Origin: Candidatus Falkowbacteria bacterium RIFOXYA2_FULL_47_19
Lineage (GTDB): Bacteria; Patescibacteriota; Patescibacteriia; Patescibacteriales; UBA12075
Direction of reading: 5' to 3'
Assembly (NCBI GenBank): GCA_001780275.1
Contig: MFGB01000016.1
Coordinates: forward strand, 92,161 to 156,160
DNA: 64,000 nt
In this document: positions 6,284-62,538 of the stretch, piece by piece
How positions within the stretch are numbered: position 1 is the stretch's first letter
How the letters are laid out: the number at the start of each line of letters is the position of its first letter
Position numbers and translations under genes: made by a program
Notes under the pieces: generated by a model
Databases searched by the model: none
What the model was told of the DNA's origin: nothing
The model's input: the letters and a program-made list of their open reading frames with translations, nothing else

Positions 6284-6325
6284 ATAGGCATTAGGTATTA
6301 GGCATTAGGCATTAGGCATTAGGCA
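6284..6325. repeat. Tandem heptamer array (TTAGGCA) x6
   Basis: ataggca ttaggta ttaggca x4. It ends 11 bp before the ATG at 6337, just downstream of a TGgTATAAT extended -10 at 6271-6279. Confidence 0.85.
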
Positions 6326-6336
6326 TTTTAATTTTT

Positions 6337-7143
6337 ATGTATATACCCGCTTCCCTTGATGGGGTCAACAAAAAAAAGAATGCCGCCGTTTTTTTAAAAA
6401 CCGCGGTTTATCGAATGGGCGGTACGGTCGAGATTTTGGCGGTATTGGCGGTTTGGATATTGATATTTTCCAAGCGAGCGGTTCTCGGCGGTTTGACTCG
6501 CGAAGAAATACTTACCTATATCCTGGTCGGTAACCTGATCGGAGCGGCCACGAACCATTTATTGCGGCGGATAGTCGTTCACGACATAAGCAGAGAAAAT
6601 CTTTCCCTGCTCATGAATTCACCCGCGTCTTATTTGGCGAAAATAATAATCAGGGGTTTCGGTCGAAATATCTTGCCGTTCATACTGTCGGTGGCGTTTC
6701 AGATTTTTTTGCTTTATTTTTTTATCGACGATTTTAAAATTAATTCGGATCCTTACTATCTTTCCGTGATCGCGGTCATGCTGGTCCTGGCTTTTTTGTC
6801 TGAATTATTGATTTTGTATTTTCTTCATTTTTTCGTTTTTTGGTCGGTCGAATCCGCCGAAACTTATAATTTTATATTGAGATTGAAAAGTATCCTGGCG
6901 GGTAGCTATTTTCCGCTGGTGATCTGGCCGGCCATCGTCAATATCAGCCTGGTCCTGCCATTCGCTTATTCTTGCTTCGTGCCGGCGGAGCTTTATTTGA
7001 AAAAAATTGGCCCAGGAATCGGTCTTCGGGGAATTTGCGTGCAAGCTATATGGATCATGATCTTGTATATTATCCTTAAAATAGTCTGGATCAGAAAGAC
7101 CGATCGGCATAACATCAGACCGAAGGAAATTTCGATAGAATAA
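6337..7143 (+). CDS. Polytopic membrane protein, possibly an ABC-2-type transporter permease
   Basis: Six or more predicted TM segments. The TREEILTYILVGNLI motif resembles ABC-2 family permeases. No SD sequence upstream. Confidence 0.4.
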   Translation: MYIPASLDGVNKKKNAAVFLKTAVYRMGGTVEILAVLAVWILIFSKRAVLGGLTREEILTYILVGNLIGAATNHLLRRIVVHDISRENLSLLMNSPASYLAKIIIRGFGRNILPFILSVAFQIFLLYFFIDDFKINSDPYYLSVIAVMLVLAFLSELLILYFLHFFVFWSVESAETYNFILRLKSILAGSYFPLVIWPAIVNISLVLPFAYSCFVPAELYLKKIGPGIGLRGICVQAIWIMILYIILKIVWIRKTDRHNIRPKEISIE

Positions 7144-7260
7144 AACCGGCCGGTGGAGTATTAAAAGCCATCTTGACTATTTGTTCGTTGTATGTTAGTA
7201 TAGCGAATGACTCTTTTTATCAGGATGTAAATTGACAATTGCGCTTCGAGGGAGGTTGAT

Positions 7261-7611
7261 TTGCCGGCAGCCGTCATTCTTGTTTTATTCGCGTTTGTAT
7301 TTTATACAACAGCGGTATTTTCGGAAATGATCAGCAAGGGACTCAGCCGCGCCATAATAGCCATATTCGCCCTAGGCTTTTTATTTGATTTGATTGGTAC
7401 TGTCGCCATGTTTATGTCGCCTGGAATGATTTTCGCTAATATTCATACTTTTTTTGGTAGTTTAGCGCTTTTGATAATGACCGTTCATTTTATCTGGGCT
7501 ATCCAGGCTTTTAAGAAACGGAGTCGGGCAGCCGGTTTATTCAGAAAATATTCCGTTTATGCCTGGACGATATGGTTCTTCGCCCTTTGCACCGGTATCC
7601 CGAAATATTGA
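7261..7611 (+). CDS. Small hypothetical membrane protein (TTG start)
   Basis: A GAGGGAGG RBS lies 5 nt upstream of the TTG start. The 116-aa product has three hydrophobic helices. Confidence 0.4.
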   Translation: MPAAVILVLFAFVFYTTAVFSEMISKGLSRAIIAIFALGFLFDLIGTVAMFMSPGMIFANIHTFFGSLALLIMTVHFIWAIQAFKKRSRAAGLFRKYSVYAWTIWFFALCTGIPKY

Positions 7612-7698
7612 TAAATTGAATTTATTTTTAATATATTTATAATCAAAGCGGAATAATATCGAAGCCAGAGTGCCAACCCTCAACAAAAAGGAGAAAGC

Positions 7699-8049
7699 GT
7701 GAACCAAAAAGTTACCGACTTGGCTGGAATCAGGGATATTCTCGAGACGATGGCCGCTTTGGCCGGAATAAAGATCGATCCCGAGAACATTTTCCAAAGA
7801 GAGCTGCGGATGGAAATTGCCGTAAACAGCAAAGAATCCTGTGAGATCAGGGTTCATTACGATGACGGGGCTTACCTGTCGTTCGTTCGTTTGAACAATT
7901 TAAAACCCGAGAACCGATGGTTTTTCCATTACCGGCCAATCGGCGGCAAAGAGAGGTTCGAGCGGATCGAGCCGGAATGCCTTAAGGAGGCGGAAAAGAT
8001 CTTTGCGAAAATGCACGATGAGATCATAACCAACGCGGTAGCGGCCTAG
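7699..8049 (+). CDS. Hypothetical protein (GTG start)
   Basis: An AAAGGAG RBS lies upstream of the GTG start. The 116-aa product is soluble. Confidence 0.45.
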   Translation: MNQKVTDLAGIRDILETMAALAGIKIDPENIFQRELRMEIAVNSKESCEIRVHYDDGAYLSFVRLNNLKPENRWFFHYRPIGGKERFERIEPECLKEAEKIFAKMHDEIITNAVAA

Positions 8050-8082
8050 CTTTTCATAGCTCTTTTATGCGAATAAAAATAA

Positions 8083-8108
8083 CCCCAGTCAAAAGACTGG
8101 GGTTTTAA
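8083..8108. terminator. Bidirectional rho-independent terminator between convergent genes
   Basis: ccccagtc-aaaa-gactgggg, flanked by an A-run upstream and a T-run downstream. Confidence 0.6.
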
Positions 8109-8132
8109 TATACGGAAATCTTATCGATTTTT

Positions 8133-11100
8133 TCAATGAGTCTTCTCGTGGTCTTTCCGGCAGAGGGCGACGAACATGATCGGAACGATATACAGGGTCA
8201 GGATCGTAGAGGCGACCAGGCCGAAAGACAAAGACAGGGAAAAGCCGCGCCAAAGTTCATTGGACCAAATTAGAGGGAAGACGCCGGCTATGGTGGTCAG
8301 GGAGGTAAGAAAAATCGGTTGCATGCGGGAGATGCCGGCCTCGACGATCGCTTCGGCAAGTTCAAGTCCGTCTTCGATATTCTTGTTTATACGATCAATA
8401 AGGACGATCGCGTCGTTGACGACGATGCCGGCCAAGGACACGATGCCGATAAAGGCCAGGAAAGAGAAGGGTTGGCCGAAAACGAGGAGGCCGAAGACCA
8501 CCCCGACAATAGCCAGGGGCAGGGAAAATAGGATTATGAACGGCTGTTTAAAGGAATTAAACTGCAGGACCAGGATAAAGGCGATAAGGATTACGGCCAA
8601 TCCCAGGGACATGAAAGTTTCCCGGAAAGATTTTTCGATGTCTTCGACCTCACCCCCGACCTTGATCGAAAAATTCGGCGGCAGTTCGATTGACGTTCTT
8701 TTCTTTTCGAAGTCGTCAAGGATCTTCTGGAGATTGGCGCCCTCCTTTATGTCAGCGCTGACGGCCGCGTATTTCGCTCCGTCCCGGTGCTGGATAGAGA
8801 GAAGGGCCGGGTTAAAACTGACGCTGGCGACATCTTTCACGGCGATGTATCCACGCGGAGATGGCAGGAGCACTTTTTCAAGATCGTCGACGCCTTTGAA
8901 TTCGTTTTGGTCGTATTTTACCGTTATATCGACATCATCGCCCTCAAGGTTTATCTCGGTCGCGGCATTGCCGAAAAGGCTGGTCCGCAAGGTGGAGGCG
9001 ACGGTAACCATATCAAGGCCGTAATAATCGGCTTTTTGCCTGTCGATCTCGAAAGTGAATTCACCGGCGGCGTCCTCGATATTATCCTTGACATTGAAAA
9101 TATCCGGATTGCCCGCCAATATTTTTTTGATTTTGCCGGCTGTGTCCGTCAAGCCTTCGAGTGTATCCCCGAAGATCCGCACTTCGATCGGGGCGCCGGT
9201 CGGCGGTCCGGCCGAAAGTTCTTCCACGGTAACCTCACCTCCCTGAATCGCGGTAATTTCACCGCGGATCGAATCGGCGATCTCGTAGCTTTTCCGGTCG
9301 CGCAAATCTTTCTCGACCAGGTTTACGGTTATGCCGCCTAAGTTTTCACCCGCTTTTCCGCCCTCGCCCGGATTAACGGATTGGCTCTGGCCGATGTTAA
9401 CGACGTAATTGTCCATCTCCGGGATGGCATTGACGATTTTTTCTGCTTCCCGGACGACCGGACGCGTCAAAGCTAGGGTGGAACCGGCCGGCAATTTTAC
9501 GCTGACAAGGAAATAATCGAGATCGACCTTAGGGAACATTTCGATTTTCATGAAACCGGCGGCCGGTATGCCGACGGCTATGAGAAAAGCCGCGGCGGCG
9601 ATAGCGAGAGAGAGGCGCCTTTTCGCCTTGCTTATAAGCACGCCCTGAAGAAATGGCCCGTAAAAGCCGTGGATCTTAAAAAACAGACCGTCGAAAAAAC
9701 GGTGCCGTTTTTTATTCCGATGGGATCCGTCCGCCGTTTTGATCTTTATGAAGCGGGCGGCTAAAACCGGCACGACGACCAAGGCTACGAAAAGCGAGGA
9801 AATAAGCGTCACGGTGATCGTTTTGGGCAAGACCGAAATATATTGTCCGAGAATGCCGGAAACCAGGAGCATGGGCAGGAAAGCCGCCACAGTCGTCATG
9901 GTTCCGGAAGTGATAGCCCATTTAAAATTCCAGACCGACAGAAGCGCGGCCTCCGCGACGGTTTTTTTATGGCGGGTAACGTATTCGTTGATGCCCTCGA
10001 TGATGACGATCGAGTTATCGACCATAAGACCCAAAGAAAGAACGAGGGAAAAAAGCACCATCGAATTAAGGGTCAGGCCTTCGAGTTTCAGGAACATGAA
10101 AGCCATAAGAAAGGCCATCGGTACGGATAAAGCCGTGATGACCGCTCCGCGGAAGCTTAAGACCAGCATCAGGATTAAGGTTATAAGTATCATGGTCTGA
10201 ATGCCGTTAGCTCCCAAGGTGTTCAAATCTTCTTTGATGAAGACGGAATTGTCGTTGGTTTTCTGAATCTTGAGATCGGACGGCAGAACGCCCTTGGCGT
10301 AAAGATCATCGATTTCTTCGCGGGTATTGTCGACAATATCAAGGATATTGCCCCCGGTCCGCTTATAGACCAAGAGCGAAACAGTATCTTCGGCCGGCAC
10401 GTCCCGGAAGCCGATTTTCGATTCGGTTTTTTTGTCTTTGAACGCATCTTCGATCCGTCCGAGATCCTTAAGGAAGACCGGGGAGCCGTCTTGAGTGGCG
10501 ACGACTATATCATAAAGATCGGTAACGCTTTTGAAACGCCCCTTTACCCGGACGTCATAGTTGAAATCATCAATGCCTATATTGCCCGCCGGAAGGCTCA
10601 CGTTGGCGCGGCCGACGGCCGCCACCACCTGTCCTAACGATAGTCCGTAGTTCGACAGTTTCGTCTGGTCGACCGCTATCCGGAATTCCCGGGTAAGGCC
10701 GCCGGAGACGACGACTTTCGATACGTCCTTGACGTTCTCCAAAGCCTCTTCAAGGTCGTCGGCGATTTTTTTTAAAGCGACTTCGTCATACTGAGCTCCG
10801 ACCAGGGAATAGGTCACGATCGGCATATCAGTGAAGTTTATCTCCGTTACGATCGGCGTTTCCGCGTCCGTCGGCAGTTCCGCTTCGGCATTGTTGGCCG
10901 CCTCCCTAAGCTTGCGGAAACTTTCATCCAGATCGGCTTCGGCTTCGTATTCCACGAAAACGCTCGATACGCCTTGTCCGGAAGTAGAGCTGTATAATTT
11001 GACGTTTTCCAGGTTCTTTATCTCATCTTCTATTTTTCTGGTCACGAGTTCTTCGATATCGACCGGGTTGGCGCCGGGATAAATCGTCGTCACGACGGCG

Positions 11101-11309: not shown

Positions 11310-11388
11310 GTTTGAGTTGAATTTTTTAATTAAATGACAATTTCCGATCCGAATAAATCCGGATACCCCGAAAAATAATGCGTAAGAC

Positions 11389-16025: not shown

Positions 16026-17465
16026 ATGAACAAAATCCTATCCATCTTTAAAAGGAAAGATCTTTTAAAGGTTCTTCTCGTCGGCGTCGGCATTCTGGCC
16101 GGCGGCGGATTTTTTTATGCCGTAAAGGCCGATCAGATCCAATATACCTATTATTCCGATGCGGACGGCGATGGCTATGGAGTTACCTCAACCACCACCT
16201 TGGCCACGGAACCGCCCGCCGGCTATGCCCGTAACGGCGGCGATTGCGCCGATACCGTAGCCGCGATAAATCCCGGCGCGGCCGAAGTCTGCGACAATAT
16301 CGACAACGATTGCGACGGATATGTGGATGAAAATGTCCTAATCACCTATTACCGCGATTTTGACGGCGACGGTTACGGATTAACCTCGAGCACCACCCAG
16401 GCCTGCTCCGTTCCGTCCGGATATGCAACGAATCAAACGGATTGCAACGACAGCAATGCGGATATAAAACCGGGCGCGGCCGAAGCCTGCGACAATATCG
16501 ATAACGACTGCGACGGTTCGATCGACGAGAACTGCGATCTTAATACTTACTACCGGGATGCCGATAACGATACGTACGGCAATCCCGGCCAGGCCACGAC
16601 AAGCTACGGCAGCGCGCCCTCAGGATACGTCAGTAATAATAATGATTGCAATGACACGAAAGCGAATATCCATCCGAACGCGGCCGAAGCCTGCGACAAT
16701 ATCGATAACGACTGCGACGGTTCGATCGACGAGTACTGTGCCAGTATGAAAACATACTACCGCGATGCCGATGGGGATACATACGGCAATCCTTCCGTCT
16801 CCACCACGAGCTTAGAGGCTCCCTCCGGATACGTGAACAACGATCGGGACTGCAACGATACCAAGGGCAGCATCAGGCCGGGCGTGAGAGAGATCTGCGA
16901 CGGCATCGATAATAACTGCGACGGAACGGTGGACGAGAACATGGCATCGCGTACTTATTATTTCGATAACGACGCCGACGGTTTCGGTGGTACCGCCACC
17001 ACCAGCGACTGCCGGCTTCCATTGGGATACGTAACGAACAATAAGGATTGCAACGATTCGAACCGTTTGATATACCCGGGAGCCGTTGAAGTCAAGGATA
17101 ACGTCGATAATGACTGCGACGGAAAAACCGACGAAGATGAAGCGGCGAACGCCTCGGAGATCTGCCCATATTTAGGCGATAACCGCCTCGGTACTTTCGT
17201 GAGCTGCGTGAATCATTACCTTAACAAACTCAAGGCGGAAGGCGAACTCGAGAATCCGGAGAAAGCCAGGATCTTAAAGGGATTGATCCAGAAGATCAAA
17301 GAGGTAATAAAGACGGAGAAAGTTGAAGATAAGGCCGAAAAAAAAGAGATAAAAAAGGAAATTAAGGATAAAAAAGAGGAAATAAGCGGGATAAGGGGAG
17401 GGATCAAGGATTTGAAAGAAAAATTTTCCGGCAGTTTTAAAAAGAAAGGGTCCTGCGGAGAATAG
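16026..17465 (+). CDS. Secreted/membrane-anchored protein with six tandem MopE-like Cys-rich putative metal-binding repeats and a Lys/Glu-rich C-terminus
   Basis: An N-terminal signal/anchor is followed by 6 repeats of YYRDADGDGYG...DCND...I.PGA.E.CDNIDNDCDG.IDE (about 68 aa each). An exact 54-bp DNA repeat occurs at 16476-16529 and 16680-16733. Confidence 0.7.
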   Translation: MNKILSIFKRKDLLKVLLVGVGILAGGGFFYAVKADQIQYTYYSDADGDGYGVTSTTTLATEPPAGYARNGGDCADTVAAINPGAAEVCDNIDNDCDGYVDENVLITYYRDFDGDGYGLTSSTTQACSVPSGYATNQTDCNDSNADIKPGAAEACDNIDNDCDGSIDENCDLNTYYRDADNDTYGNPGQATTSYGSAPSGYVSNNNDCNDTKANIHPNAAEACDNIDNDCDGSIDEYCASMKTYYRDADGDTYGNPSVSTTSLEAPSGYVNNDRDCNDTKGSIRPGVREICDGIDNNCDGTVDENMASRTYYFDNDADGFGGTATTSDCRLPLGYVTNNKDCNDSNRLIYPGAVEVKDNVDNDCDGKTDEDEAANASEICPYLGDNRLGTFVSCVNHYLNKLKAEGELENPEKARILKGLIQKIKEVIKTEKVEDKAEKKEIKKEIKDKKEEISGIRGGIKDLKEKFSGSFKKKGSCGE

Positions 17466-26397: not shown

Positions 26398-26516
26398 AGA
26401 TTAGATACAGGGTCCCTCTTTTTAAGAGGGGGATCCGCACCTAATTTTTAATTATTGGTTATTAGTCAATTAGTTAAACGGACAATAATTGTTAACTTAA
26501 CTAAAACGCACATAAC

Positions 26517-29191: not shown

Positions 29192-29282
29192 TGATTTACG
29201 ATTTGCGGTTGAATATTTCAAATAAGCCAATCCAAAAAAAAGTAGTAATACGCGATTTAATTGACGATTTGCGGTTGATATA

Positions 29283-29317
29283 CAATCGGCAATCGCCAAT
29301 CGGCAATCGCCAATCCA
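29283..29317. repeat. Tandem heptamer array CAATCGG/CAATCGC (14-mer x2.5) immediately upstream of rplB
   Basis: caatcgg caatcgc caatcgg caatcgc caatcca. It ends 3 nt before the rplB ATG at 29321. The spacer also holds 17-bp direct repeats (acgatttgcggttga at 29198 and 29263) and 13-bp direct repeats (gccaatccaaaaa). Confidence 0.85.
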
Positions 29318-33324: not shown

Positions 33325-33380
33325 TTTACAATTGTCGATCGCTGATTGACGATTGAAATAAATTGAAGAAAATAAATAAT

Positions 33381-33415
33381 CGTTATGCGTTACGCGTTAT
33401 GCGTTACGCGTTATG
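33381..33415. repeat. Tandem heptamer array CGTTATG/CGTTACG (14-mer x2.5) upstream of rplX
   Basis: cgttatg cgttacg cgttatg cgttacg cgttatg. It ends 15 nt before the rplX ATG at 33431, overlapping the SD region. Confidence 0.85.
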
Positions 33416-33430
33416 AGGAATGATATAAAT

Positions 33431-35010: not shown

Positions 35011-35045
35011 TAGGTTATAGGGATTAGGGAATAGGGATTAGGATA
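35011..35045. repeat. Tandem G-rich heptamer array TAGGGAT/TAGGGAA between rpsH and rplF, with a partially complementary C-rich segment downstream (35055-35076)
   Basis: taggtta tagggat tagggaa tagggat taggata. The downstream cctctaatccccaaccccctaa is an imperfect reverse complement, so the two can form a long hairpin. Three G3 tracts sit on 4-nt loops. Confidence 0.8.
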
Positions 35046-35084
35046 CGTTTTAACCTCTAATCCCCAACCCCCTAAGCAACACAT

Positions 35085-35624: not shown

Positions 35625-35645
35625 AAAAGATCGTTGTAATTTAAA

Positions 35646-35668
35646 ATTTAGTTTAGGATTTAGAATTT
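35646..35668. repeat. Degenerate heptamer array (ATTTAGT TTAGGAT TTAGAAT) abutting the start codon of the TlyA-like gene
   Basis: Three 7-nt units with a TTAG(G) core. The ATG at 35670 follows directly. Confidence 0.55.
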
Positions 35669-35669
35669 A

Positions 35670-36266
35670 ATGGAGAGGGATAGCGAAAAAAATGATTACC
35701 AATATGTTGGTCGCGGGGCTTTAAAGCTGAAACACGCCTTAGAACATTTCCGTGTTGACGTCAGGGATAAAACGGCCGCCGACCTGGGGTGTTCGACCGG
35801 TGGATTTACGGAAGTGCTCCTGGAAAAAGGGGCCCGTAAAGTATACGCGGTCGATACGGCTTACGGGCAGCTGGACTGGAAACTTCGGAAAGATGATCGG
35901 GTGGCAGTAATGGAAAGGACGAACGCGCTTCACGCGGAACTGGAAGAAAAGGTCGATCTGGTGGTCATAGACGCCGGCTGGACCGCGCAAAAATTGATCA
36001 TACCGAAAGCCATGGAGCTCCTTAAGGCGCAAGGAGACATAATTTCCCTTGTTAAGCCGCATTACGAAGCTAAGCGCTACGGTCTGGTTTTTAAGGGAAA
36101 AAAATTAACAGCGGAAGAAAGCAGGCGGATACTCGAATCTGTTTTAGAAGATCTGGAAAAAGCTGGTTTTAAAATCAATCTATATACCACCTCTCCGGTT
36201 ACCGGGGAAAAAGGGAAAAATATCGAATATCTTGTATGGATCAACAAAAAAGAAAAAAAACAATAA
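35670..36266 (+). CDS. TlyA-family rRNA 2'-O-methyltransferase (FtsJ-like fold) lacking the N-terminal S4 domain; embedded in the spc operon
   Basis: GRGALKLKHALEHFRVDVRDKTAADLGCSTGGFTEVLLEKGARKVYAVDTAYGQLDWKLRKDDRV matches the TlyA SAM-binding core. Confidence 0.7.
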   Translation: MERDSEKNDYQYVGRGALKLKHALEHFRVDVRDKTAADLGCSTGGFTEVLLEKGARKVYAVDTAYGQLDWKLRKDDRVAVMERTNALHAELEEKVDLVVIDAGWTAQKLIIPKAMELLKAQGDIISLVKPHYEAKRYGLVFKGKKLTAEESRRILESVLEDLEKAGFKINLYTTSPVTGEKGKNIEYLVWINKKEKKQ

Positions 36267-36689: not shown

Positions 36690-37346
36690 ATGGATAATAA
36701 GAACAGCAATAAAAATCAAATGAACAATCCTAAAAACACGGGAACGGGCGGATCGGTTTACGCGTCCAAAAAAAGACAGGAAAGAGGCAAAAGGATGCCG
36801 GCGGCCGGCAGGGATAAACAGGAAGAATTCGACCAGCGCATAGTCGATATCGCGCGCGTTACCAGGGTTATGGCCGGAGGCAAAAGGATGCGGTTTCGGG
36901 CCTGCGTGGCGATCGGCGATAAAAAAGGAAGGGTAGCGATCGGATTGGCGAAAGGCGCCGACGTTACTTTGGCAGTTACCAAGGCCGTCAATAAAGCGAA
37001 AAAGAATTTCATAGAAGTGCCGATGGTAAGTGAAACCATACCGCATGAACTTCGCTATAAATACGGCGCGGCTAAGATCCTTTTGAAACCGGCCCGGCCG
37101 GGCAAGGGGGTTATCGCCGGCGGCGCCGCCCGGATTATTTTTGAGCTGGCCGGGATCAAGAATATCACGAGCAAGATATTGGGCACGAACAATAAGGTGA
37201 ACATAGTGAAATGCGCGATCAGGGCTTTAGATAGCCTCAAGAAGGTGGAGAAACCAAAGAAGCAGGAGATTAAAAAAGAAGCGGAAAAAAGCGACGGTAA
37301 CAAGGACGCGGAGGTCAAGAAAAAGGAAGAAATGAGCGGGAAATAA
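36690..37346 (+). CDS. rpsE: 30S ribosomal protein S5 with N- and C-terminal extensions
   Basis: S5 dsRBD plus C-terminal domain (RVTRVMAGGKRMRFRACVAIGD...). Confidence 0.9.
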   Translation: MDNKNSNKNQMNNPKNTGTGGSVYASKKRQERGKRMPAAGRDKQEEFDQRIVDIARVTRVMAGGKRMRFRACVAIGDKKGRVAIGLAKGADVTLAVTKAVNKAKKNFIEVPMVSETIPHELRYKYGAAKILLKPARPGKGVIAGGAARIIFELAGIKNITSKILGTNNKVNIVKCAIRALDSLKKVEKPKKQEIKKEAEKSDGNKDAEVKKKEEMSGK

Positions 37347-37375
37347 TCGAAATAAGTATATAATTTTAGAATATT

Positions 37376-37849
37376 ATGACATTAGCATTACATACGATCA
37401 AATCGACGGCCGGTACGACCAAGAAGCGGAAAAGGGTCGGGCGCGGCAACGCTTCCGGACACGGCACTTATTCCACTCGCGGGCTTAAGGGCCAAAAATC
37501 CAGGAAGGGCGTATCGAACCTGAAGCGTTTAGGCATGAAGCAGGTACTTTTGCGGACGCCGAAAAAGCGCGGATTCCGGTCGCTTAAGCCGAAGCTGCAG
37601 GTTGTCAATCTGTCCTTGATAAATGATAATTTTAAGGATAAAGACATCATCGATCCCAAAGTTTTACTGGGTAAAAAGCTCATCGATACCGTAAAAACGG
37701 GCGTAAAAGTCCTGGGGCCGGGAAAGCTTATCTTAAAGGGGCTTACTTTTAAGGATGTAAAAATGAGCGGATCGGTCAAAGAAGAACTGGAAAAGGCTGG
37801 CGGAACATGTGTAGTAAAAAAAGAAAAGAAAGTGTATAATAGGAGATAG
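37376..37849 (+). CDS. rplO: 50S ribosomal protein L15
   Basis: KRVGRGNASGHGTYSTRGLKGQKSR. The gene follows rpsE after a 29-bp gap, leaving no room for rpmD. Confidence 0.9.
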   Translation: MTLALHTIKSTAGTTKKRKRVGRGNASGHGTYSTRGLKGQKSRKGVSNLKRLGMKQVLLRTPKKRGFRSLKPKLQVVNLSLINDNFKDKDIIDPKVLLGKKLIDTVKTGVKVLGPGKLILKGLTFKDVKMSGSVKEELEKAGGTCVVKKEKKVYNRR

Positions 37850-39199: not shown

Positions 39200-39336
39200 A
39201 TAGTAATCATATAAAAAACTTTTTTATAATTTACCGTAGATACTGCCATTAGCGGAAGCCAGCGGAGAGTGTTAGTATTTTTTTAAAAAGTATTGTATAA
39301 TAAATTTACATTAGAATTTATAATTTATAAAAATTT

Positions 39337-40200
39337 ATGAAGAAAAAGATAATTTATCTTTTTATTATTTTATCGTTGCCGATTTTGTTTTCGGCTTGTT
39401 CCCGGGTAACTTCGATCGAGAAGGAGGGCGCTCCGGAGCTAAAGAAGATCAGGATTTCCGGATCAGGATCGGGTTTGAATATATTAAGCTCGGTAATAGA
39501 GCTTTTTAAAGAGGATAACCCGGACATTAAAATCGAGATCTTGCCCGGTACCGGCACGGGCGAAGGGATTATCGGTGTGGACCAGGGAGTCCTGGATATT
39601 TGTTTGGGCGCCAGAGAAATGAACGAAGAAGAAAGGGGGAAATACCCCGACCTGACGGAATCGACGTTCGTTCTAGATGCCATGGTCTTAACTATCCACA
39701 ATTCACAGAGCATAGATAATTTAAGCAAAGAGAATATTGTCGATATTTTTTCCGGACGGATAAATAATTGGAAAGAACTCGGGGGCAATGACGCCGAGAT
39801 AGTAATACTCGATCGGGAGGAAAGCGAATCCAGCAAGCTTTTGTTGAGAAAATACATCCTGGGCGAAGATCTGGAGGTAGATAAGGACGCGGTATTGATC
39901 CACAGCGCGGCATCGATGGACGAAGCGCTTGAATTATCGGTTAACGCCATGGGCCAAACCTCTTTAGGGATGATAAAATACAAAAAATTACCGGTCAAAG
40001 CTTTGTCTATAGACGGAATTTCGCCCAACGAAGAAACGGTAAGGAGCGGCAGCTACGAGATGGTCCGTCGGTACGGCATAATATATGATCAGGTCAAGTT
40101 GACCCCGGAGGCAGAGAAATTGATCGATTATCTTCATAGTCCGGAGGTAAAGAGCGCGTTAAGTTCATTCGGGTTTTTCCCGGAAGATGACGAATTATGA
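39337..40200 (+). CDS. Lipoprotein, periplasmic-binding-protein fold (PstS/phosphate-binding-like substrate-binding domain)
   Basis: A lipobox (LFSAC) and PBP type-2 motifs (ISGSGSGLN ... LPGTGTGEGI). The promoter is TGTATAAT at about 39294. Confidence 0.6.
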   Translation: MKKKIIYLFIILSLPILFSACSRVTSIEKEGAPELKKIRISGSGSGLNILSSVIELFKEDNPDIKIEILPGTGTGEGIIGVDQGVLDICLGAREMNEEERGKYPDLTESTFVLDAMVLTIHNSQSIDNLSKENIVDIFSGRINNWKELGGNDAEIVILDREESESSKLLLRKYILGEDLEVDKDAVLIHSAASMDEALELSVNAMGQTSLGMIKYKKLPVKALSIDGISPNEETVRSGSYEMVRRYGIIYDQVKLTPEAEKLIDYLHSPEVKSALSSFGFFPEDDEL

Positions 40201-41177
40201 AATTCAAGATATTCCACAAGATAATCGTCAGTTTTTTATCGCTGATCCTTTTATTTACCGGGGCGATATCGTACGTGATTTATAACACGAAAACGACATT
40301 TGAAGAGGTTGAAAGAAATACGGAGCTCGTACACGGTATTTACGAGCTGACCATAGTTTTGCATCAGCTATCAAACGTTACTAAGGACTACACTCTCAAC
40401 AGGGAAAAAGGAACGGCCGAAGGATTAAGAAGCATGTGGGTGAATTATTTTTATAAGATGAATTCAGCCTTGGAATATCTTAAGGATAATGGATCATATC
40501 CGGAAGCGGTCGGTTTGATCGAAGAAAATATATTGATCGTCAATAATAACGTCGATATGGTGGTCGATATCAATGCTCTTTTGTCGGTTACTTCGGACGA
40601 GGGCAAAAAGGAAGAGCTTATTAAAGAGCGGGAAAACGCGTTGGGCGAGCTTAATGTCCTGCAGAAAAAGATCTCCGGTATAGTCGAGAATGTCAACGCG
40701 GAGGCGGAAGAGGAATACCACCTGTCCATGCGCAGGAACCAGGATATTATCACGGCCGCTTATTATATATTCATGTTCGTGATCATTCTCTCGTTCATCC
40801 TGGCGGTGCTTATCTCTTATTCGATATCGATCCCGATACATAAGCTCTATAAAGGCACGGAGGCGATCGAAAAGGGGAATTTAGATTTTAAAGTAGGCAC
40901 GGACGCCGGCGACGAGATCGGCCAACTGTCACGTTCTTTCGACAAGATGGTATCGGCCTTCAAGAAATCCCTGCAAAAAATAGAATCGCAGAACAGGACC
41001 CTGGACGAAGAAGTGAAAATAAGGACAAAAGAACTCGATGAAAAGAATAAAGAGCTTGAGCGGACACTGGAAGATTTTTATACTATCCGTTTGGGCATGC
41101 AAAGAGATCTGGAAAAAGGAACCGTCAGCGAGGAAAATAAAAAAATAAGGGAAAGGCTGGATAAGCTCAAAAGGTAA
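40197..41177 (+). CDS. Membrane protein with periplasmic domain, HAMP domain and C-terminal coiled coil; no kinase or MCP output domain
   Basis: Two TM helices flank a periplasmic region of about 150 aa. A HAMP domain (IHKLYKGTEAIEKGNLDFKVGTDAGDEIGQLSRSFDKMV) is followed by about 80 aa of coiled coil. The start overlaps the upstream lipoprotein gene (ATGA). Confidence 0.6.
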   Translation: MKFKIFHKIIVSFLSLILLFTGAISYVIYNTKTTFEEVERNTELVHGIYELTIVLHQLSNVTKDYTLNREKGTAEGLRSMWVNYFYKMNSALEYLKDNGSYPEAVGLIEENILIVNNNVDMVVDINALLSVTSDEGKKEELIKERENALGELNVLQKKISGIVENVNAEAEEEYHLSMRRNQDIITAAYYIFMFVIILSFILAVLISYSISIPIHKLYKGTEAIEKGNLDFKVGTDAGDEIGQLSRSFDKMVSAFKKSLQKIESQNRTLDEEVKIRTKELDEKNKELERTLEDFYTIRLGMQRDLEKGTVSEENKKIRERLDKLKR

Positions 41178-54673: not shown

Positions 54674-54701
54674 GCGTAACGTGGAACGCGTAACTCATAA
54701 C
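54674..54701. repeat. Heptamer array GCGTAAC GTGGAAC GCGTAAC TCATAAC immediately after the asnS stop
   Basis: Four 7-nt units that share the ...AAC ending. Confidence 0.6.
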
Positions 54702-54730
54702 ATTTGTTTTTGCGATTATTAAATTTTTTT

Positions 54731-54756
54731 GTCATTCCCGCGCAAGCGGGAATGAC
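54731..54756. promoter_or_regulatory. Perfect 11-bp stem hairpin with GCAA (GNRA) tetraloop
   Basis: gtcattcccgc-gcaa-gcgggaatgac. T-run upstream, A-rich downstream. Confidence 0.7.
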
Positions 54757-54788
54757 AAATTATAAAAATTATTAATAAAAATAATTAT

Positions 54789-55673: not shown

Positions 55674-55674
55674 A

Positions 55675-55730
55675 AAAATGCAAAATGCAAATCTCAAAAT
55701 GCAAAATGACAATGTAAAATTTAAAATGAA
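55675..55730. repeat. Tandem heptamer array AAAATGC (21-mer x about 2.5) upstream of the flavodoxin gene
   Basis: aaaatgc aaaatgc aaatctc aaaatgc aaaatga caatgta aaattta aaatgaa. It runs into the ATG codons at 55726 and 55735. Confidence 0.8.
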
Positions 55731-55734
55731 TATT

Positions 55735-56220
55735 ATGAAAGTATTAGTTATTTATTATTCCCGGACCAAAACGACTAAAAAGGTGGCCGAGGCGCTGGCC
55801 GAAAAATTAGGCGCCGATCTCGAAGAGGTCATCGACAAGAAAGACCGAAGCGGAGCCCTGGGCTGGCTCTCGGCCGGCCGGGACGCGACCCGGCGGTATT
55901 TGACCGATCTTGAGCCGGCGAAAAAAGCGGCCGGCGATTACGACCTCGTTATGATCGGCACGCCGATCTGGTCCTGGAACCTGTCCACCCCGATACGCAC
56001 CTATCTTTCTGAGAACAAAGAGGTTTTAAATAAAATAAAAACCGCTCTTTTCTGCACGATGGGCGGGTCGGGGCACGAACGGGCCGGCCGCGAGATGGGG
56101 GGCATTATCGGCCGGGAACCGGCCGCCACTCTCGGGCTTTTGACGAAAGAGGTGGTACAGGATAAATTCGCGGAAAAGCTGGAAGAATTTATTAATAAAA
56201 TCAATCAGACGATAAAATAA
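55735..56220 (+). CDS. Flavodoxin-like protein
   Basis: MKVLVIYYSRTKTTKKVAE...LVMIGTPIWSWN. The start is chosen downstream of the repeat array; the longer 55567 ORF reads through the repeats and the upstream gene. Confidence 0.7.
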   Translation: MKVLVIYYSRTKTTKKVAEALAEKLGADLEEVIDKKDRSGALGWLSAGRDATRRYLTDLEPAKKAAGDYDLVMIGTPIWSWNLSTPIRTYLSENKEVLNKIKTALFCTMGGSGHERAGREMGGIIGREPAATLGLLTKEVVQDKFAEKLEEFINKINQTIK

Positions 56221-56231
56221 TTTTTAAAAAA

Positions 56232-57332: not shown

Positions 57333-57343
57333 TTTTATACTTT

Positions 57344-57940: not shown

Positions 57941-58003
57941 TTAATCTTTTTGTAATAATAAGTTAATATAATAAGAAATTAACCTTAATCATAATAAAAA
58001 TCT

Positions 58004-58942: not shown

Positions 58943-58993
58943 TCGAATAATATAAATATCAATAAGCCGTTCATTGACAAAGGAGCATTACCC

Positions 58994-59599
58994 ATGAAAG
59001 CGTTATTGGCAATACTGGCCGGTTTATTGTTGGTTTTGGCGATTAGCACTCTGCCCGCATCGGCTAAGGAGCCGGGCGATACTCTCGTAAGATCGATCGA
59101 GCGGACCTTATCCATATTAAGAGCGGATGACGCTCCCCCCGTTAAAAAAGCCAGGATCCGGGAAGTCATCAACGGTCTTTTTGATTTTGACCTGATGGCC
59201 CAAAAAGTAACCGGTCATCACTGGAATGATTTCAGTCCGGAGGAAAAAAAGGAATTTACCGCCGTGTTCGCGGATCTGGTGGGCGATATTTATCTTGATA
59301 AACTTAAGTATTATCGAAACGAGAAGATCGAATTCATCGGGCAATATCTTAGAAGCGAACGTGATGGCCGTTCTTTTTATCTTGTCTCTACGATGATCAC
59401 CAAGATAGAGCAGCAATTCCGCGTGAATTACGGAATGTACGTTTTTGCCGGACAAGGACGCGTTTATGACGTCGAGATAGAAGGAGTCAGCCTGGTGCGG
59501 AGCTTCCGCACCCAGTACGCCAACCTGCTCGAGAAAATGACGCCGGCAAAATTCATAGATAATATCAGGGCCCGGCTTAAAGAGAGGCGAGGACAATGA
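58994..59599 (+). CDS. MlaC/Ttg2D family (ABC-transport auxiliary, lipid-binding) periplasmic protein
   Basis: A signal peptide followed by the MlaC-like pattern (VINGLFDFDLMAQKVTGHHWNDFSPEEKKEFTAVFADLV). Confidence 0.65.
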   Translation: MKALLAILAGLLLVLAISTLPASAKEPGDTLVRSIERTLSILRADDAPPVKKARIREVINGLFDFDLMAQKVTGHHWNDFSPEEKKEFTAVFADLVGDIYLDKLKYYRNEKIEFIGQYLRSERDGRSFYLVSTMITKIEQQFRVNYGMYVFAGQGRVYDVEIEGVSLVRSFRTQYANLLEKMTPAKFIDNIRARLKERRGQ

Positions 59600-60372
59600 A
59601 AAAGCCCTTAATCCCCGCATTGGACGGACACAGGACAAAAGCCGATATTATCAAGGCGGCTGTCGACATCGGCCATTCGCCCTTATCCGGCATTATCCAT
59701 TACTGGAAGATAAATGACGCGGCCCATCTTGAGCGTTCCACGGGGCAAGCGGTTATAAAGGCTTTGCGCCGGGCGATCGGCAAAGACCGGAGCTGCGGCA
59801 TATTTCTGGATCTGAAATTGACCGAAACGAACGGCAGTCTGGGCAATATAGCGCGCCATTATGCCGATTCCCGTCCGGACATATTGACCGTTACCGGAAA
59901 GGTTTCGACGCGCGGATTCATCGAGCTCCGCCGGATATTGCCGAAGACCAAAATCGCTCTGGTAAGCGTTTTAAGCGATATTACGGAAGAAGAGTGCCGT
60001 TTCCGCTGGTGTAAATCCGTCCAAGACCTGATGATCTCGGAAATAGAGGGGATCCAGGATTATTATCGTCGGCTTAAAAGCTATACCGATCCGGCCACGG
60101 CCTTCGACATGGTGGTTTGCTCTCCGGACGAGGTCGGCAGTTTAAGCCGGCGTTTTTCGTGGCTCGAATTCGTGGTTCCCGGCATCCGCGACGCCTGGAT
60201 GGTCAATGGCCAGCAGGCCAGATTCTCCGGCATCGTCCGGACGCTCGATAACGGCGCCGATTACGTCGTTATAGGCGCGCAGATCGCGCGGGGCAATCCG
60301 GAAAAAGGCATAACAGCCGAAGAGAGCCGGAATCTTACTCTGAGCGAACTTGAGAGGAGGGGGAAGGCATGA
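59596..60372 (+). CDS. pyrF: Orotidine 5'-phosphate decarboxylase-like protein
   Basis: PALDGH..., IFLDLKLTETNG, VVCSPDEVG and VPGIR...ADYVVIGAQI are colinear with PyrF. Confidence 0.7.
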   Translation: MKKPLIPALDGHRTKADIIKAAVDIGHSPLSGIIHYWKINDAAHLERSTGQAVIKALRRAIGKDRSCGIFLDLKLTETNGSLGNIARHYADSRPDILTVTGKVSTRGFIELRRILPKTKIALVSVLSDITEEECRFRWCKSVQDLMISEIEGIQDYYRRLKSYTDPATAFDMVVCSPDEVGSLSRRFSWLEFVVPGIRDAWMVNGQQARFSGIVRTLDNGADYVVIGAQIARGNPEKGITAEESRNLTLSELERRGKA

Positions 60373-60942
60373 ATTTAAGGGATGAGCTTGCGGATATGCT
60401 TCGCCTGAAATCCTGCCGCTACAGCGATAGACCGGAATTTAAGCTGGCTTCCGGTAAGATGAGCCGTTATTACATAGACTGCCGGCAAACGACTTATAGC
60501 GCCCGGGGGAATGTATCTGGTCGGCCACGTGATTTTCCCGCTCGTAAGGGATATCGGCATAACCGCTATCGGCGGGCTTACGCAAGGAGCGGATCCGATC
60601 GCCGCCGCCATCGCTTATACTTCCGTGCTTTACGGCGAACGGATCGATTCTTTTTCGGTCCGGAAAGAAAAGAAAGGCCACGGGGTTGGCGGCTGGATAG
60701 TCGGCGGCGTAGCGCCCGGCGCCCGGATCGCGATCGTCGAAGACGTGATCACAACCGGCGATTCGACGCTTTTAGCTATAGAACGGGCGCGGGAAGAAGG
60801 ACTTGATCCGGTCAAGGTCGTTATCCTGGCCGACCGCCGGGAAAACTGCGCCTTGGACCGGATCAGGCGGCAGGTTCCGGACGTATCGGCCATATTTACC
60901 CGGGATCAATTGTTCGCGATCTCAGGAAATTATGGACTTTAA
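60369..60942 (+). pseudogene. pyrE: Orotate phosphoribosyltransferase interrupted by a +1 frameshift in a CCCGGGGG homopolymer (about 60502-60509)
   Basis: The N-terminal PyrE segment (FKLASGKMSRYYIDCRQ) is in frame 3. The C-terminal PRTase segment (IAIVEDVITTGDS, from 60490) is in frame 1. Confidence 0.6.
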
Positions 60943-60953
60943 AGGAGAAAATA

Positions 60954-61442
60954 ATGGAAGAAATCGCGCGGATCGTCCAGAAATATTTCAACACCTGTTC
61001 CGTGTGCCTGACAAAAGGGCTTGAAAGCTTCGAAGTGAAACTCGATCCGGCCGGCCGGATCGTGTGCGCGAACGAATGTTCGTGCCAGAAAAGACAGAGG
61101 GAACGGAACTTCGCGTTCCTGCATTTCGCCCGGCATAATTTCAGTCCGGAAAATATCGTCGATTTCGGCCCGGGCTTCATAATCCTAAAAAAATCCGGGG
61201 CCGCGGACGATATTCCCGCCCTGATCGACTCGCTCATAACGTATTTTTTCCGGAATTTCTGCGCCGTCCGGAGTCTGGAACCGTCCAAAGAGAGTCTCGA
61301 ACTTTTTGACGCCACCTCTGACTGCCGGCTTTTATCGGTAAGCCTCGGAAGAGAGCGGGTAAAGGGAGTTTTATCCGCCTTGCTGCCCGCAGCCAAACCG
61401 AAAAAAACCGTAAAACCGAAAGCGGCCGCGGCCGCACCCTGA
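60954..61442 (+). CDS. Hypothetical Cys-rich protein
   Basis: AAGGAGA RBS. CSVC...CANECSC cluster. No known domain. Confidence 0.45.
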   Translation: MEEIARIVQKYFNTCSVCLTKGLESFEVKLDPAGRIVCANECSCQKRQRERNFAFLHFARHNFSPENIVDFGPGFIILKKSGAADDIPALIDSLITYFFRNFCAVRSLEPSKESLELFDATSDCRLLSVSLGRERVKGVLSALLPAAKPKKTVKPKAAAAAP

Positions 61443-61476
61443 AAAAGCCTGAATTCGGGCTAAAATAATTTAAATA

Positions 61477-61503
61477 GTTAGCTAAGATAAGCTAACTTTT
61501 TTA
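61477..61503 (+). terminator. Rho-independent terminator
   Basis: gttagct-aagata-agctaac followed by ttttttatt. Confidence 0.65.
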
Positions 61504-61636
61504 TTGTCTAGGAATTTCTATTTTTAGTTAATTTCGTGATCATTCGTTATTTTCGTGTTTTCGGCTTAAAAAAGCTAAACACGAAAGCAACGAAAAAATA
61601 CGAAATAAACAAAAAAAGCCGAAGGTTTATTTTATT

Positions 61637-61665
61637 TTGCTTTTCGCGGCGTTTTAAGGTATAAT
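61637..61665 (+). promoter_or_regulatory. Sigma70-like promoter (TTGCTT, 17-nt spacer, TATAAT) upstream of scpA
   Basis: TTGCTT at 61637-61642 and TATAAT at 61660-61665. Confidence 0.4.
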
Positions 61666-61707
61666 ATTAACAGGTTAACCGCCGTTCTCTGACGGCTATT
61701 TAGTTTA

Positions 61708-62421
61708 ATGATAGAATTCAAACTGGAAAAATTCGAAGGGCCGCTTTCCCTGCTTTTGAAATTAATAGAGCAGGAAGAGATGGATATTACCCAGGTCAGC
61801 CTGGCTAACGTCGCCGACCAATACGTAGAGTATATCAAAAGATCACCGGAGATCGATGCGGAAGAAGTGGCCGATTTTTTAGTGGTGGCCGCGAAGCTCC
61901 TGCTTATAAAATCAAAAGCGCTCCTGCCCTATCTTTATCCGGAAGAGGCGGAGGAGATCGACGACCTCGAGAAGCAGCTGCGGATGTACAAGGAGTTCGT
62001 CGAAGCCGCCCGCAAGATCAACCTGATGATCGGCAAGAAGAAATTCATGTTCACCCGCGTTTTTAACCGCCGGGCCATGCTCGCCGACGCGAATCTTTTC
62101 TCCCCTCCGGCGAAGATCGGAAGCGATGATATGAGGATGATCTTCCGGGACCTTTTGGCCCGCCTGCGCCCTCCGGAAGCGCTTGAAGAAAGGACGATCA
62201 TAAGCAAGGTTTCGATCGAGGATAAGATTCTCCATATCCAGCAGATGCTCGTTACCAGGATTAAGATGAGTTTCAATAAGGTACTCGCGCGCGCCAAAGA
62301 CAAAACCGAAATAATAGTGAGTTTCCTGGCCATGCTCGAACTTATGCGCCAGCGGGAAGTGGTATTGGAGCAGGAAGAATTATTCAGCGAGATTTTTATT
62401 GAAAAAATAGTTAAAGAATAA
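61708..62421 (+). CDS. scpA: Segregation and condensation protein A
   Basis: FEGPLSLLLKLIEQEEMDITQVSLANVADQY. Confidence 0.85.
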   Translation: MIEFKLEKFEGPLSLLLKLIEQEEMDITQVSLANVADQYVEYIKRSPEIDAEEVADFLVVAAKLLLIKSKALLPYLYPEEAEEIDDLEKQLRMYKEFVEAARKINLMIGKKKFMFTRVFNRRAMLADANLFSPPAKIGSDDMRMIFRDLLARLRPPEALEERTIISKVSIEDKILHIQQMLVTRIKMSFNKVLARAKDKTEIIVSFLAMLELMRQREVVLEQEELFSEIFIEKIVKE

Positions 62422-62538
62422 TAATTACAAATACACCAATCAAAACACAAATTCACAAATGCCGCACTAACATGTCCGTTGAATATTTGTGATTTAATTC
62501 GTGAATTCGTGATCTTATTGTGAATTCGTAATCCATTT

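Follow-up and report, generated by a model that had tools for sequence, protein, structure and literature searches.

Short tandem arrays with a period of seven lie in several gene spacers of a 64,000-nucleotide (nt) stretch of the genome of Candidatus Falkowbacteria bacterium RIFOXYA2_FULL_47_19 (GCA_001780275.1, contig MFGB01000016.1, positions 92,161 to 156,160 of the forward strand; hereafter the window), some of them inside a ribosomal-protein operon, which raises the question of what these arrays are and what they have in common. A first-pass annotation had listed nine such loci, each with its own repeat unit and each 0–15 nt upstream of an ATG, and had proposed that they form a lineage-specific class of cis elements of the start-codon region. 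The analysis described here establishes the arrays as a real, non-random and lineage-typical class with a preferred period of 7, in which periods of 8–10 are less common. We read them, with a probability of about 0.65, as long simple sequence repeats of the heptanucleotide class, located in non-coding spacers of a Falkowbacteria genome that is poor in Shine-Dalgarno sequences, and as usually arranged in inverted pairs which would therefore form intercistronic stem-loops. The hairpin partners of the arrays had been missed in the first-pass annotation.

Contig MFGG01000035.1 of a second assembly (GCA_001778165.1, Candidatus Falkowbacteria bacterium RIFOXYB2_FULL_47_14) matches the window with 100% identity, and in a protein search with L6 from the window the closest proteins came from Candidatus Falkowbacteria and other Patescibacteria. 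Six independent assemblies (Logan, JGI, ENA and NCBI; different samples) are identical through the ribosomal-operon arrays and contain few mismatches, at contig ends only. An assembly artefact, which the first-pass annotation had considered, is thereby ruled out. A cyanobacterial origin and HIP1 repeats were also ruled out, as only four GCGATCGC sites are present and the ribosomal-protein matches are to Falkowbacteria.

Heptamer arrays and their inverted partners

Arrays were called with Tandem Repeats Finder and with a self-match detector that scores matches at a fixed lag (periods 4–12, one threshold), and the chance expectation was taken from 100 second-order Markov (Markov-2) simulations of the window. 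Both callers identified four strong period-7 arrays, at 6285, 29283, 33381 and 35018, and two weak ones, at 35638 and 55675, were called by Tandem Repeats Finder only. With the self-match detector, the window yielded four period-7 arrays and one period-6 array, compared with ~0.0–0.04 per period in the simulations. Six of the nine loci listed earlier are thus retained as period-7 arrays, and those at 54674, 62496 and 63511 are not. Profile search, in a scan that took in 20 window proteins, agreed with the gene identities assigned earlier (rplB, rplX, rplF, a TlyA-like methyltransferase, asnS, flavodoxin and scpB). The report of three enlarged spacers in the ribosomal operon was likewise accurate: the array-bearing spacers measure 129, 103 and 74 nt, as compared with 18–44 nt for their neighbours.

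The self-match detector was also applied to a comparison set of loci centred on ribosomal-protein genes, with one genome per species, and to additional metagenome loci (all referred to below by number, L001 and so on). Of the 53 Patescibacteria-like loci (870 kb), 20 had period-7 arrays, 43 in all, and the metagenome loci (608 kb) had 42, as opposed to 2 in the 489 kb that came from other phyla. Within the Patescibacteria-like set, periods 5, 6, 7, 8, 9, 10 and 11 were represented by 0, 1, 43, 18, 5, 6 and 4 arrays, respectively (~0.3 in simulations). The proposal of a lineage-specific class is borne out to the extent that the arrays are typical of the lineage, period 7 being widespread in the Patescibacteria relatives and almost missing from the sampled loci of other phyla. 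In the ribosomal-protein region alone, about 38% of the candidate phyla radiation species sampled have an array. Hardly any type of spacer is free of arrays, and a few genomes carry many and most none. A crude map of open reading frames (ORFs), by which 87% of the sequence is coding, places 43 of the 49 period-7 arrays and 17 of the 18 period-8 arrays between genes and all ten period-12 arrays inside ORFs. The only period-7 arrays sampled outside Patescibacteria are two CCCGTCT/CCCGTCA arrays (L075, 15152–15346) in a G+C-rich gammaproteobacterial genome from a metagenome.

These properties correspond to those of heptanucleotide long simple sequence repeats, tandem arrays of 5–11 nt units that exceed chance length and among which heptamers are the most abundant in most prokaryotic genomes; they are described as mainly intergenic and phylogenetically patchy, with units that are not a multiple of three kept out of genes and with a heptamer bias for which slippage tied to the ~7-nt footprint of the polymerase has been proposed (Mrazek, Guo and Shah 2007, as summarised in PMC4679880 and PMC4692102). 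The excess over chance, the predominance of period 7 among periods 5–11 and the exclusion from coding sequence were all observed here. In those summaries, the ten genomes listed as richest in repeats belong to Burkholderia, cyanobacteria, actinobacteria and Xanthomonas, whereas the present arrays come from Patescibacteria; they also differ in being mostly paired and in their location within a ribosomal-protein operon, in a genome that is very compact. No report linking heptamer repeats to Patescibacteria was found in the literature.

A further feature of the arrays is their pairing. When each array was compared with the reverse complement of the remaining part of its spacer, using shuffled controls, 46 of 76 arrays had a reverse-complementary partner at p ≤ 0.05 and 39 of 76 at p ≤ 0.01, so that ~60% of the arrays are one arm of an inverted pair. 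In relatives, the usual layout consists of the stop codon, an array of three to five copies of one unit, an A/U-rich loop, an array of the reverse-complementary unit, a few nucleotides and the start codon (L004 7516–7588, L022 970–1049, L034 6647–6734 and 8502–8570, L021 6324–6390 and L046 3130–3185, with further examples in L108, L113, L128 and L154). The paired inserts, 60–110 nt long, fold back on themselves, and the base of the fold adjoins the upstream stop codon and the downstream start codon. Convergent pairs of this kind have been described in Xanthomonas, in which heptamer arrays of the unit GGGAATC (GGGGA(C/T)T in Nostoc PCC 7120) have a modal length of ~4 units, are intergenic and transcribed, form 70–75 convergent inverted pairs in Xanthomonas with stem-loop capacity, and are located between corresponding genes in sister species with variation in length and sequence (Rehm et al. 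2015, PMC4692102). Close convergent pairs capable of forming stem-loops are shared with the present arrays (46 of 76, including three loci of the earlier list), and the array before rplF, alone in the window, fits the heterogeneous Xanthomonas consensus GGGANTN. The difference is that a single G-rich unit with G-quadruplex capacity dominates in Xanthomonas, whereas many unit families, mostly A+T-rich, are present here.

In the window, partners were detected for the arrays at 29283, 35018, 62485 and 61577; all elements below are given on the forward strand. The rplW/rplB spacer contains a stem-loop (29252–29310; both callers, folding, partner test p = 0/500) whose 5′ arm at ~29261–29280 reads GATTGAC GATTTGC GGTTGAT and whose 3′ arm is a 14-mer, CAATCGG/CAATCGC, repeated 2.4 times (29283–29315, 100% matches) up to 5 nt before the rplB ATG; a shorter copy of this module is located upstream, at 29200–29232. 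A stem-loop at 35014–35077 fills the rpsH/rplF spacer (both callers, folding, partner test p = 0.03). Its 5′ arm is a TAGGGAT/TAGGGAA array of 3.6 copies (35018–35042), which begins 7 nt from the rpsH stop codon and ends 42 nt from the rplF start codon, and its 3′ arm is a C-rich imperfect complement, CCTCTAATCCCCAACCCCCTAA. The rplN/rplX spacer holds two elements. At its 5′ end, a 12-base-pair hairpin built from CGATTGA-family units (33329–33355) was recognised from folding and from comparison with L002 and L003, in which it is orthologous to arrays of four and three CGATTGA copies, respectively. It is followed by a CGTTATG/CGTTACG array of five units (33381–33415; a 14-mer repeated 2.5 times, 100% matches, both callers), which is self-complementary through ACGCGT cores and ends at a GAGGAA Shine-Dalgarno sequence.

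Three further window hairpins have periodic arms. A long imperfect stem-loop precedes scpB (62424–62532; Tandem Repeats Finder period 8/19 at 62485–62533, partner test p = 0/500, folding), with arms of period 8–10 that read ACAAAT/CACAAAT on the 5′ side (~62425–62460) and ATTCGTGA on the 3′ side; it belongs to the same class of element as the other hairpins, though its period is not 7. A stem-loop that was absent from the earlier list, at 61521–61615 (Tandem Repeats Finder 61577–61617, partner test p = 0/500, folding), has TTTCGTG and CACGAAA arms of period 9–10 and a folding energy of −35 kcal/mol and occupies a divergent spacer before the gene at 61708. The tuf/rpsJ spacer contains a degenerate periodic hairpin recognised by folding (26458–26516; TTATTGG TTATTAG TCAATTAG on one side and TAATTG TTAACT TAACTAA on the other).

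The remaining arrays of the window are unpaired, and those at 6285, 35638 and 55675 fold worse than shuffled sequences. The TAGGCAT/TTAGGCA array of 6.1 copies (6285–6327; 94% matches, both callers) forms the greater part of the 5′ leader in front of an ABC-2 membrane protein gene (ATG 6337; Pfam match), downstream of an intrinsic terminator (6226–6254) and a −10-like box, TGGTATAAT, and has no complementary partner within its spacer (p = 0.53). A weak and unstructured TTTAGGA-like array (35638–35669; 77% matches, 14% indels, score 36, fold z = +0.57) abuts the ATG of the TlyA-like methyltransferase gene. A second weak and unstructured array, of AAAATGC-like units with a 21-nt super-period (55675–55728; 75% matches, fold z = +1.49), occupies the whole spacer before the flavodoxin gene, and arrays of the reverse complement of its unit, ATTTTGC, are present in L014 and L051. 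This array is in frame with a flavodoxin ORF from the ATG at 55678, which follows GGGGAAG; initiation there (55678–55734) could give flavodoxin a 19-residue N-terminal extension, MQNANLKMQNDNVKFKMNI, and homology favours a start at 55735.

Conservation and turnover in close relatives

The nearest other genome, L007 (JAZDLN010000028.1), has 91–95% nucleotide identity to the window over the shared region, and no relative with an L6 identity between 78% and 99% was found in the genome, metagenome and protein collections; loci L169–L174 gave further examples of the elements and no intermediate relative for comparing copy numbers. Relative to L007, third codon positions of the thirteen flanking genes are 13.2% divergent and the eleven spacers 5.2%. 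Two of the four ribosomal-operon arrays are kept in L007 at the same length, and at the other two sites the spacer is different or cannot be aligned. The rplX array has the same position and length in both genomes, with 4 substitutions in 35 positions (11%), which is indistinguishable from neutral change. In the rplF hairpin the arms are unchanged (0 of 60 positions) and the loop differs at 2 of 4 positions; the conservation of the arms has p = 0.0002 when judged by the third-position rate and ~0.04 when judged by the spacer mean. The 33329–33355 hairpin differs by two arm substitutions that keep the pairing of the sense RNA (A-U to G.U and U.G to C-G) and by a third in the loop. No difference from L007 is found within the tuf/rpsJ hairpin (59 nt), as the three differences of that spacer all lie upstream of it. 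The rplB spacer (124–129 nt) is replaced in L007 by an unrelated spacer of 46–51 nt, and the TlyA spacer could not be aligned with the shorter spacer that L007 has there.

At a greater distance, homologues of the elements occupy the corresponding three spacers of L002 (L6 73% identical), where units and copy numbers have changed. Its rplW/rplB arms read AATCGGC/ATTCGAC and TTTTCGA/TTTCCGA. The CGATTGA array in the rplN/rplX spacer has four copies in L002, three in L003 and about two in the window and in L007. The apex (GGATTA..TTTTAACC.TCTAAT) is kept in the rpsH/rplF spacer of L002, the arms being different on both sides. L001, L089 and L169, which are as close as L002, have short spacers at the sites of the elements. 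Conservation across orthologous spacers, which the first-pass annotation had named as informative, is thus partial: it is seen for two of four arrays in L007 and three spacers in L002, and a conserved array position was rejected at long range across genomes and is partly true within the closest clade. As judged from these alignments, the elements can persist for a long time, change units and copy number, and be gained or lost as whole spacers, and the hairpin-type members appear to be at least as constrained as ordinary leader sequence.

As a separate observation, L003 and several other loci with L6 50–73% identical to the Falkowbacteria query have ribosomal-protein operons typical of Patescibacteria under record titles that read ‘uncultured Gammaproteobacteria bacterium’ (binchicken co-assemblies), so this taxonomic label is probably wrong. 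In L091, the rplN/rplX spacer is 471 nt long (4835–5305), with a GTAACAT/GTAACTC array at its start and a seemingly inserted small ORF behind GAGGAGG.

Origin, possible function and alternative explanations

In the reading that we favour, each arm would have been built by replication slippage, which the first-pass annotation had offered as one option and which is the best-supported origin. The frequent alternation of two units (14 nt) would result from duplication of unit pairs, and a period that is not a multiple of three would confine the arrays to non-coding DNA. The complementarity of the arms may be kept by selection for pairing or by intrastrand template switching at quasi-palindromes. 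If the elements have a function, they would exert it as intercistronic stem-loops in polycistronic transcripts, for which we presume both transcription and folding; possible effects are on segmental stability or processing of the messenger RNA, or on the next start codon, which might be unmasked when the upstream cistron is translated. The stem-loops would not be sites for a sequence-specific factor. Hairpin-type members look constrained and the unpaired rplX array seems to drift at the neutral rate, and whole elements would be gained or lost by spacer-sized insertions and deletions. What is new here is the lineage, the number and diversity of unit families per genome and the signs of constraint on hairpin-type members. 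The bias to period 7, the intergenic location, the inverted pairing and the position at start codons are already published for other phyla, so the earlier statement that no such family had been described does not hold in view of the heptanucleotide repeats, the Xanthomonas pairs and the start-abutting arrays of Beggiatoaceae.

Several points weigh against this account. Transcription, folding in vivo and an effect on expression are all inferred, and slippage as the reason for the 7-nt bias has in the literature the status of a hypothesis and not of a demonstrated mechanism. A partner is lacking for three or four arrays of the window (6285, 35638 and 55675, with 33381 pairing only with itself). 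Over 15 hairpins, the sense strand has no folding advantage: the summed energies are −342 kcal/mol for sense and −393 kcal/mol for antisense, with 25 and 36 G.U pairs, respectively, the slightly more stable strand being the antisense one. Conservation of the rplF hairpin exceeds that of the average spacer by a narrow margin only (p ~0.04). Active slippage predicts some copy-number variation, and none was seen among the six assemblies, which sample one population and as consensus assemblies hide minor variants; the variation between strains that the first-pass annotation had suggested looking for was therefore not found. Finally, for the copies of the same unit that occur across several spacers in L034, L108, L134 and L014, dispersal is a better explanation than independent slippage.

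Among the alternatives, the one that fares best takes the hairpin-type members for intercistronic RNA elements under selection in operons poor in Shine-Dalgarno sequences, whose stem between stop and start codon would act as a double-strand RNase site or stabiliser that segments the long ribosomal-protein transcript, or as a mask of the next start codon until the upstream cistron is translated; we consider it a tentative but tangible possibility. It concerns function rather than origin and is compatible with the slippage account. The unchanged rplF arms beside a changed loop and far more divergent third codon positions, the retained pairing at 33329–33355 and the L002 rpsH/rplF apex kept between arms that changed on both sides argue for it, as does the persistence of elements in three spacers of both the window and L002 despite a small compact genome. 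The start-proximal arm is also A+C-rich in 31 of 40 hairpins, which fits the G-poor composition of the leaders. This RNA-level reading is weakened by the absence of a sense-strand folding advantage, by the similar conservation of all operon spacers (5.2%), among which the hairpins are not special, by the lack of conserved positions across genomes and by L007, which is without two of the four elements and with no visible consequence; moreover, the covariation comes from three sequences only. No Rfam family supports it either: with Rfam 15, no match at the gathering score was obtained across the whole window, and the two matches below that score are at chance level and both in coding sequence. 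A more specific proposal, which we regard as unlikely, is that the Falkowbacteria/Buchananbacteria group has an undescribed class of intercistronic stem-loops in which tandem-heptamer arms are kept complementary during sequence turnover, by slippage with template switching or by selection, and that these are under purifying selection as organisers of how long operon transcripts without Shine-Dalgarno sequences are processed or translationally coupled.

Other roles for the hairpins were considered and rejected. They have no signature of an intrinsic terminator, as no U tract is present, A-rich leaders and an ATG come after the arms, and a consensus scan placed no terminator at them; the true window terminators lie elsewhere (6226–6254 and ~54728–54760). 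Promoter-like matches in the rplX spacer are at background (33 versus 24 ± 5 expected). Known RNA families and tRNA-linked elements were searched for and none was found. G-quadruplex formation was set aside because only 35018–35042 has G3 tracts (three), as was the provision of stop codons in all three frames, which only units containing TAG would achieve. An attempt to choose the functional orientation from a keto-rich first arm was dropped, since in a palindrome both strands have identical arms.

The second alternative is that the elements are miniature mobile or dispersed hairpins, similar to REPINs or MITEs, in which tandem arms are incidental and which, once inserted in spacers, diverge through concerted evolution inside the individual copies. 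The recurrence of units speaks for it. According to the first-pass annotation each array has its own unit, and this claim did not survive, because unit families recur significantly within and between genomes: when units within one mismatch are counted (any rotation, either strand), there are 251 pairs between genomes compared with 166 ± 12 after shuffling, and 19 pairs within genomes at distances above 300 nt compared with 4.2 expected. In the window, the CGATTGA/CAATCG family occurs in two spacers on opposite strands, in the rplB arms (CAATCGG and GATTGAC) and at 33329–33355 (GATTGAC GATTGA); the units TTAGGCA, TAGGGAT and TTTAGGA are one or two bases apart; and the units at 54674 are the reverse complement of the rplX-array family GTTAYGC. 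A core motif common to all units was sought and none was found beyond A+T richness, which makes a single sequence-specific protein unlikely, and in this respect the earlier conclusion that one DNA-binding protein cannot explain the arrays is upheld.

More direct signs of dispersal come from L034, L108, L134 and L014, in which whole elements with a common loop and common ends are present in several spacers of one genome (L034, GTAGTGA twice and CTAATAAG five times; L108, TTCGTAT twice; L134, AACTACC four times). These multi-spacer elements, together with the replacement of whole spacers between the window and L007, point to dispersal as well as local growth. REP/REPIN and MITE-like elements are short self-folding intergenic insertions for which roles in mRNA stability have been proposed, and REPINs occur as high-copy, near-identical sequences with a cognate REP-associated tyrosine transposase (RAYT) and arms that are not tandem repeats (Bertels and Rainey 2011, PMC3116915). 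The likeness to them lies in self-folding intergenic inserts inside operons and in the several dispersed copies in some relatives (L034, L014); the difference is that window elements share at most a unit family and are not high-copy, near-identical palindromes. No transposase or RAYT-like gene was present among the 20 window proteins scanned, target-site duplications and conserved termini were not identified in the window elements, most of which share nothing beyond the unit level, and mobility would leave the unpaired arrays unexplained. We therefore regard a mobile origin as possible but doubtful.

Two G+C-rich repeats of the relatives may be recorded here. In L014, an element of ~45 nt, AATAAATTTCCGCTTGGCGGAATACCTAAATTTTGCATTT, composed of a small G+C hairpin and flanking heptamer arrays, is found in three spacers of one operon (5970–6050, rplV/rpsC; 6765–6830, rpsC/rplP; 9901–10000, rpsH/rplF). 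A different G+C-rich repeat, CCGCCGTCGCTAAAGCTATGGCGTGGCGAAGTA, is duplicated in the rplF/rplR spacer of L095 (7541–7642) and single in L096 (2187–2255).

The diversity of units in one genome also recalls the short tandemly repeated repetitive (STRR) sequences of cyanobacteria, in which several heptanucleotide units are tandem in the non-coding DNA of one genome and high-copy families have been used for fingerprinting; we know of no report of systematic pairing among them. The presence of several heptamer units in one genome is common to both systems, and the difference is that STRR units are not tandem here. The STRR heptamers of Calothrix PCC 7601 are cited in PMC4692102. None of TAACTGA, STRR1–3, GGGAATC and GGGGAYT occurs in tandem in the window.

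The proximity to start codons that had first drawn attention to the arrays is the basis of a third, very improbable explanation, the one that the first-pass annotation favoured, namely that they are 5′-leader platforms for a periodic single-strand RNA-binding protein (HutP-like on UAG-N4, or S1, Csp or CsrA as proposed for TAACTGA). The position claimed, 0–15 nt upstream of an ATG, is confirmed for 6285 (9 nt), 29283 (5 nt), 35638 (0 nt), 55675 (6 nt) and 33381, for which profile coordinates and gene calls place the real rplX start at 33428, 12 nt past the array, with the ATG at 33413 lying inside it. It does not apply to 35018 (42 nt) or to 54674, where a terminator intervenes. Four of the six window arrays thus end 0–9 nt before a start, and the finding that at least three of the four informative arrays lie within 15 nt of one has p ~0.04 under uniform placement (an estimate from spacer and array lengths). 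In the relatives, unpaired arrays also lean to the start codon (~13 versus 5, by eye). The paired arrays, however, comprise 19 stop-proximal (5′) and 27 start-proximal (3′) arms, which are not significantly unequal. Native spacers in these operons have medians of ~10–35 nt and array-bearing ones measure 65–135 nt; with native spacers so short, any insert ends a few nucleotides from both the stop and the start codon. Adjacency to the start codon is therefore mostly a matter of geometry, and a weak tendency of the arrays towards the start side is possible without being their defining property. The start codon or ribosome-binding region, put forward earlier as the shared property, is accordingly replaced by another description: the arrays fill stop-to-start spacers, ~60% are one arm of an inverted pair, and positions are unconserved.

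The translation signals of the window are compatible with such insertions. A Shine-Dalgarno core (GGAG, GAGG or AGGA, 4–20 nt upstream) precedes only 7 of 51 window starts, the leaders are 76% A+T and 11% G, and translation in this genome seems to start mostly without Shine-Dalgarno pairing, so an array that abuts a start would destroy no specific signal; A+C-rich start-proximal arms fit this G-poor composition. A comparable situation was described in marine Beggiatoaceae, in which TAACTGA direct repeats of 2–6 copies lie a few nucleotides before start codons, some of them internal to ribosomal-protein operons, in genes that lack Shine-Dalgarno sequences; the translational roles proposed for them are untested (MacGregor 2015, PMC4679880). 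Arrays that end a few nucleotides from starts without a Shine-Dalgarno sequence are shared with the window (four of six arrays), but in Beggiatoaceae there is a single forward unit with one indirect repeat in 170 (PMC4679880), whereas inverted pairs are common here. TAACTGA itself has two single occurrences in the window, and no tandem copy was found in the window or in any locus. For a periodic RNA-binding protein it can be said that the TTAGGCA, TAGGGAT and TTTAGGA arrays read UAG-N4 on the sense strand and that unpaired arrays are less structured than shuffled sequences (z = +0.6 to +1.5); nevertheless, the other window arrays have no UAG and units share no core, most arrays are base-paired arms that lie on the stop side as often as on the start side, and no candidate protein was identified.

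It is highly improbable that the arrays are contingency repeats whose copy number switches downstream expression (phase variation): tandem repeats do lie between a promoter or stop codon and a start, as with the AGAT repeats of Moraxella uspA2, and the CGATTGA copy number differs among the window, L002 and L003, but the six assemblies, which come from different samples, show no length variation, a 5% divergent genome has rplX and rplF arrays of unchanged length, and the downstream genes encode ribosomal proteins and housekeeping functions.

Under the slippage and inverted-pair reading, the arrays are a common phenomenon in candidate phyla radiation genomes, which are usually thought to be stripped of non-essential DNA. 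Their unit diversity is far above that of known cases, and the conservation of some hairpin members equals that of functional leader sequence. The arrays offer natural material for two questions, why slippage favours 7-nt units and whether such hairpins are tolerated parasites or RNA structures that organise operons. A practical consequence is that the arrays lengthen spacers and carry in-frame ATGs, by which gene callers are misled: the rplX start was called 15 nt early, and flavodoxin possibly receives a false N-terminal extension from the ATG in its array.

Doubtful loci and neighbouring genes

Of the loci that were not retained, the one at 54674–54701 is a doubtful member with four loosely similar units (GCGTAAC GTGGAAC GCGTAAC TCATAAC; recognised by reading the sequence and by folding) that are below the threshold of both array callers; they directly follow the asnS stop codon and are separated from the next gene by the strong terminator hairpin at ~54728–54760. 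At 63511, a 10-mer is present twice, 4 nt apart, with no call by Tandem Repeats Finder and no period-7 array. A coding repeat of another kind is found in the ORF at 16026–17465, which has five MopE-type putative metal-binding motifs and contains a 204-base-pair tandem repeat of 1.9 copies (16440–16834, 79% matches).

The ribosomal-protein region has several further peculiarities. The TlyA/FtsJ-family rRNA methyltransferase gene (35670–36266) lies inside the spc operon, between rplF and rplR, and overlaps rplR by 31 nt; its product matches profile positions 53–227 only, without the N-terminal S4 domain. The same arrangement is present in L007/L082 and L169 and absent from L170, L172 and L173. 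The rpsE gene is directly followed by rplO (37346–37376), with no rpmD (L30) gene between them, as is typical of candidate phyla radiation genomes. Downstream of secY, ~2 kb of sequence (39200–41174) encodes a PBP-like solute-binding protein and a HAMP-domain protein, in place of which L007 has ~70 nt, an insertion or deletion between close relatives. On the Falkowbacteria-like contig L170, a RelB/YafQ toxin-antitoxin pair is located just downstream of secY (8622–9157).

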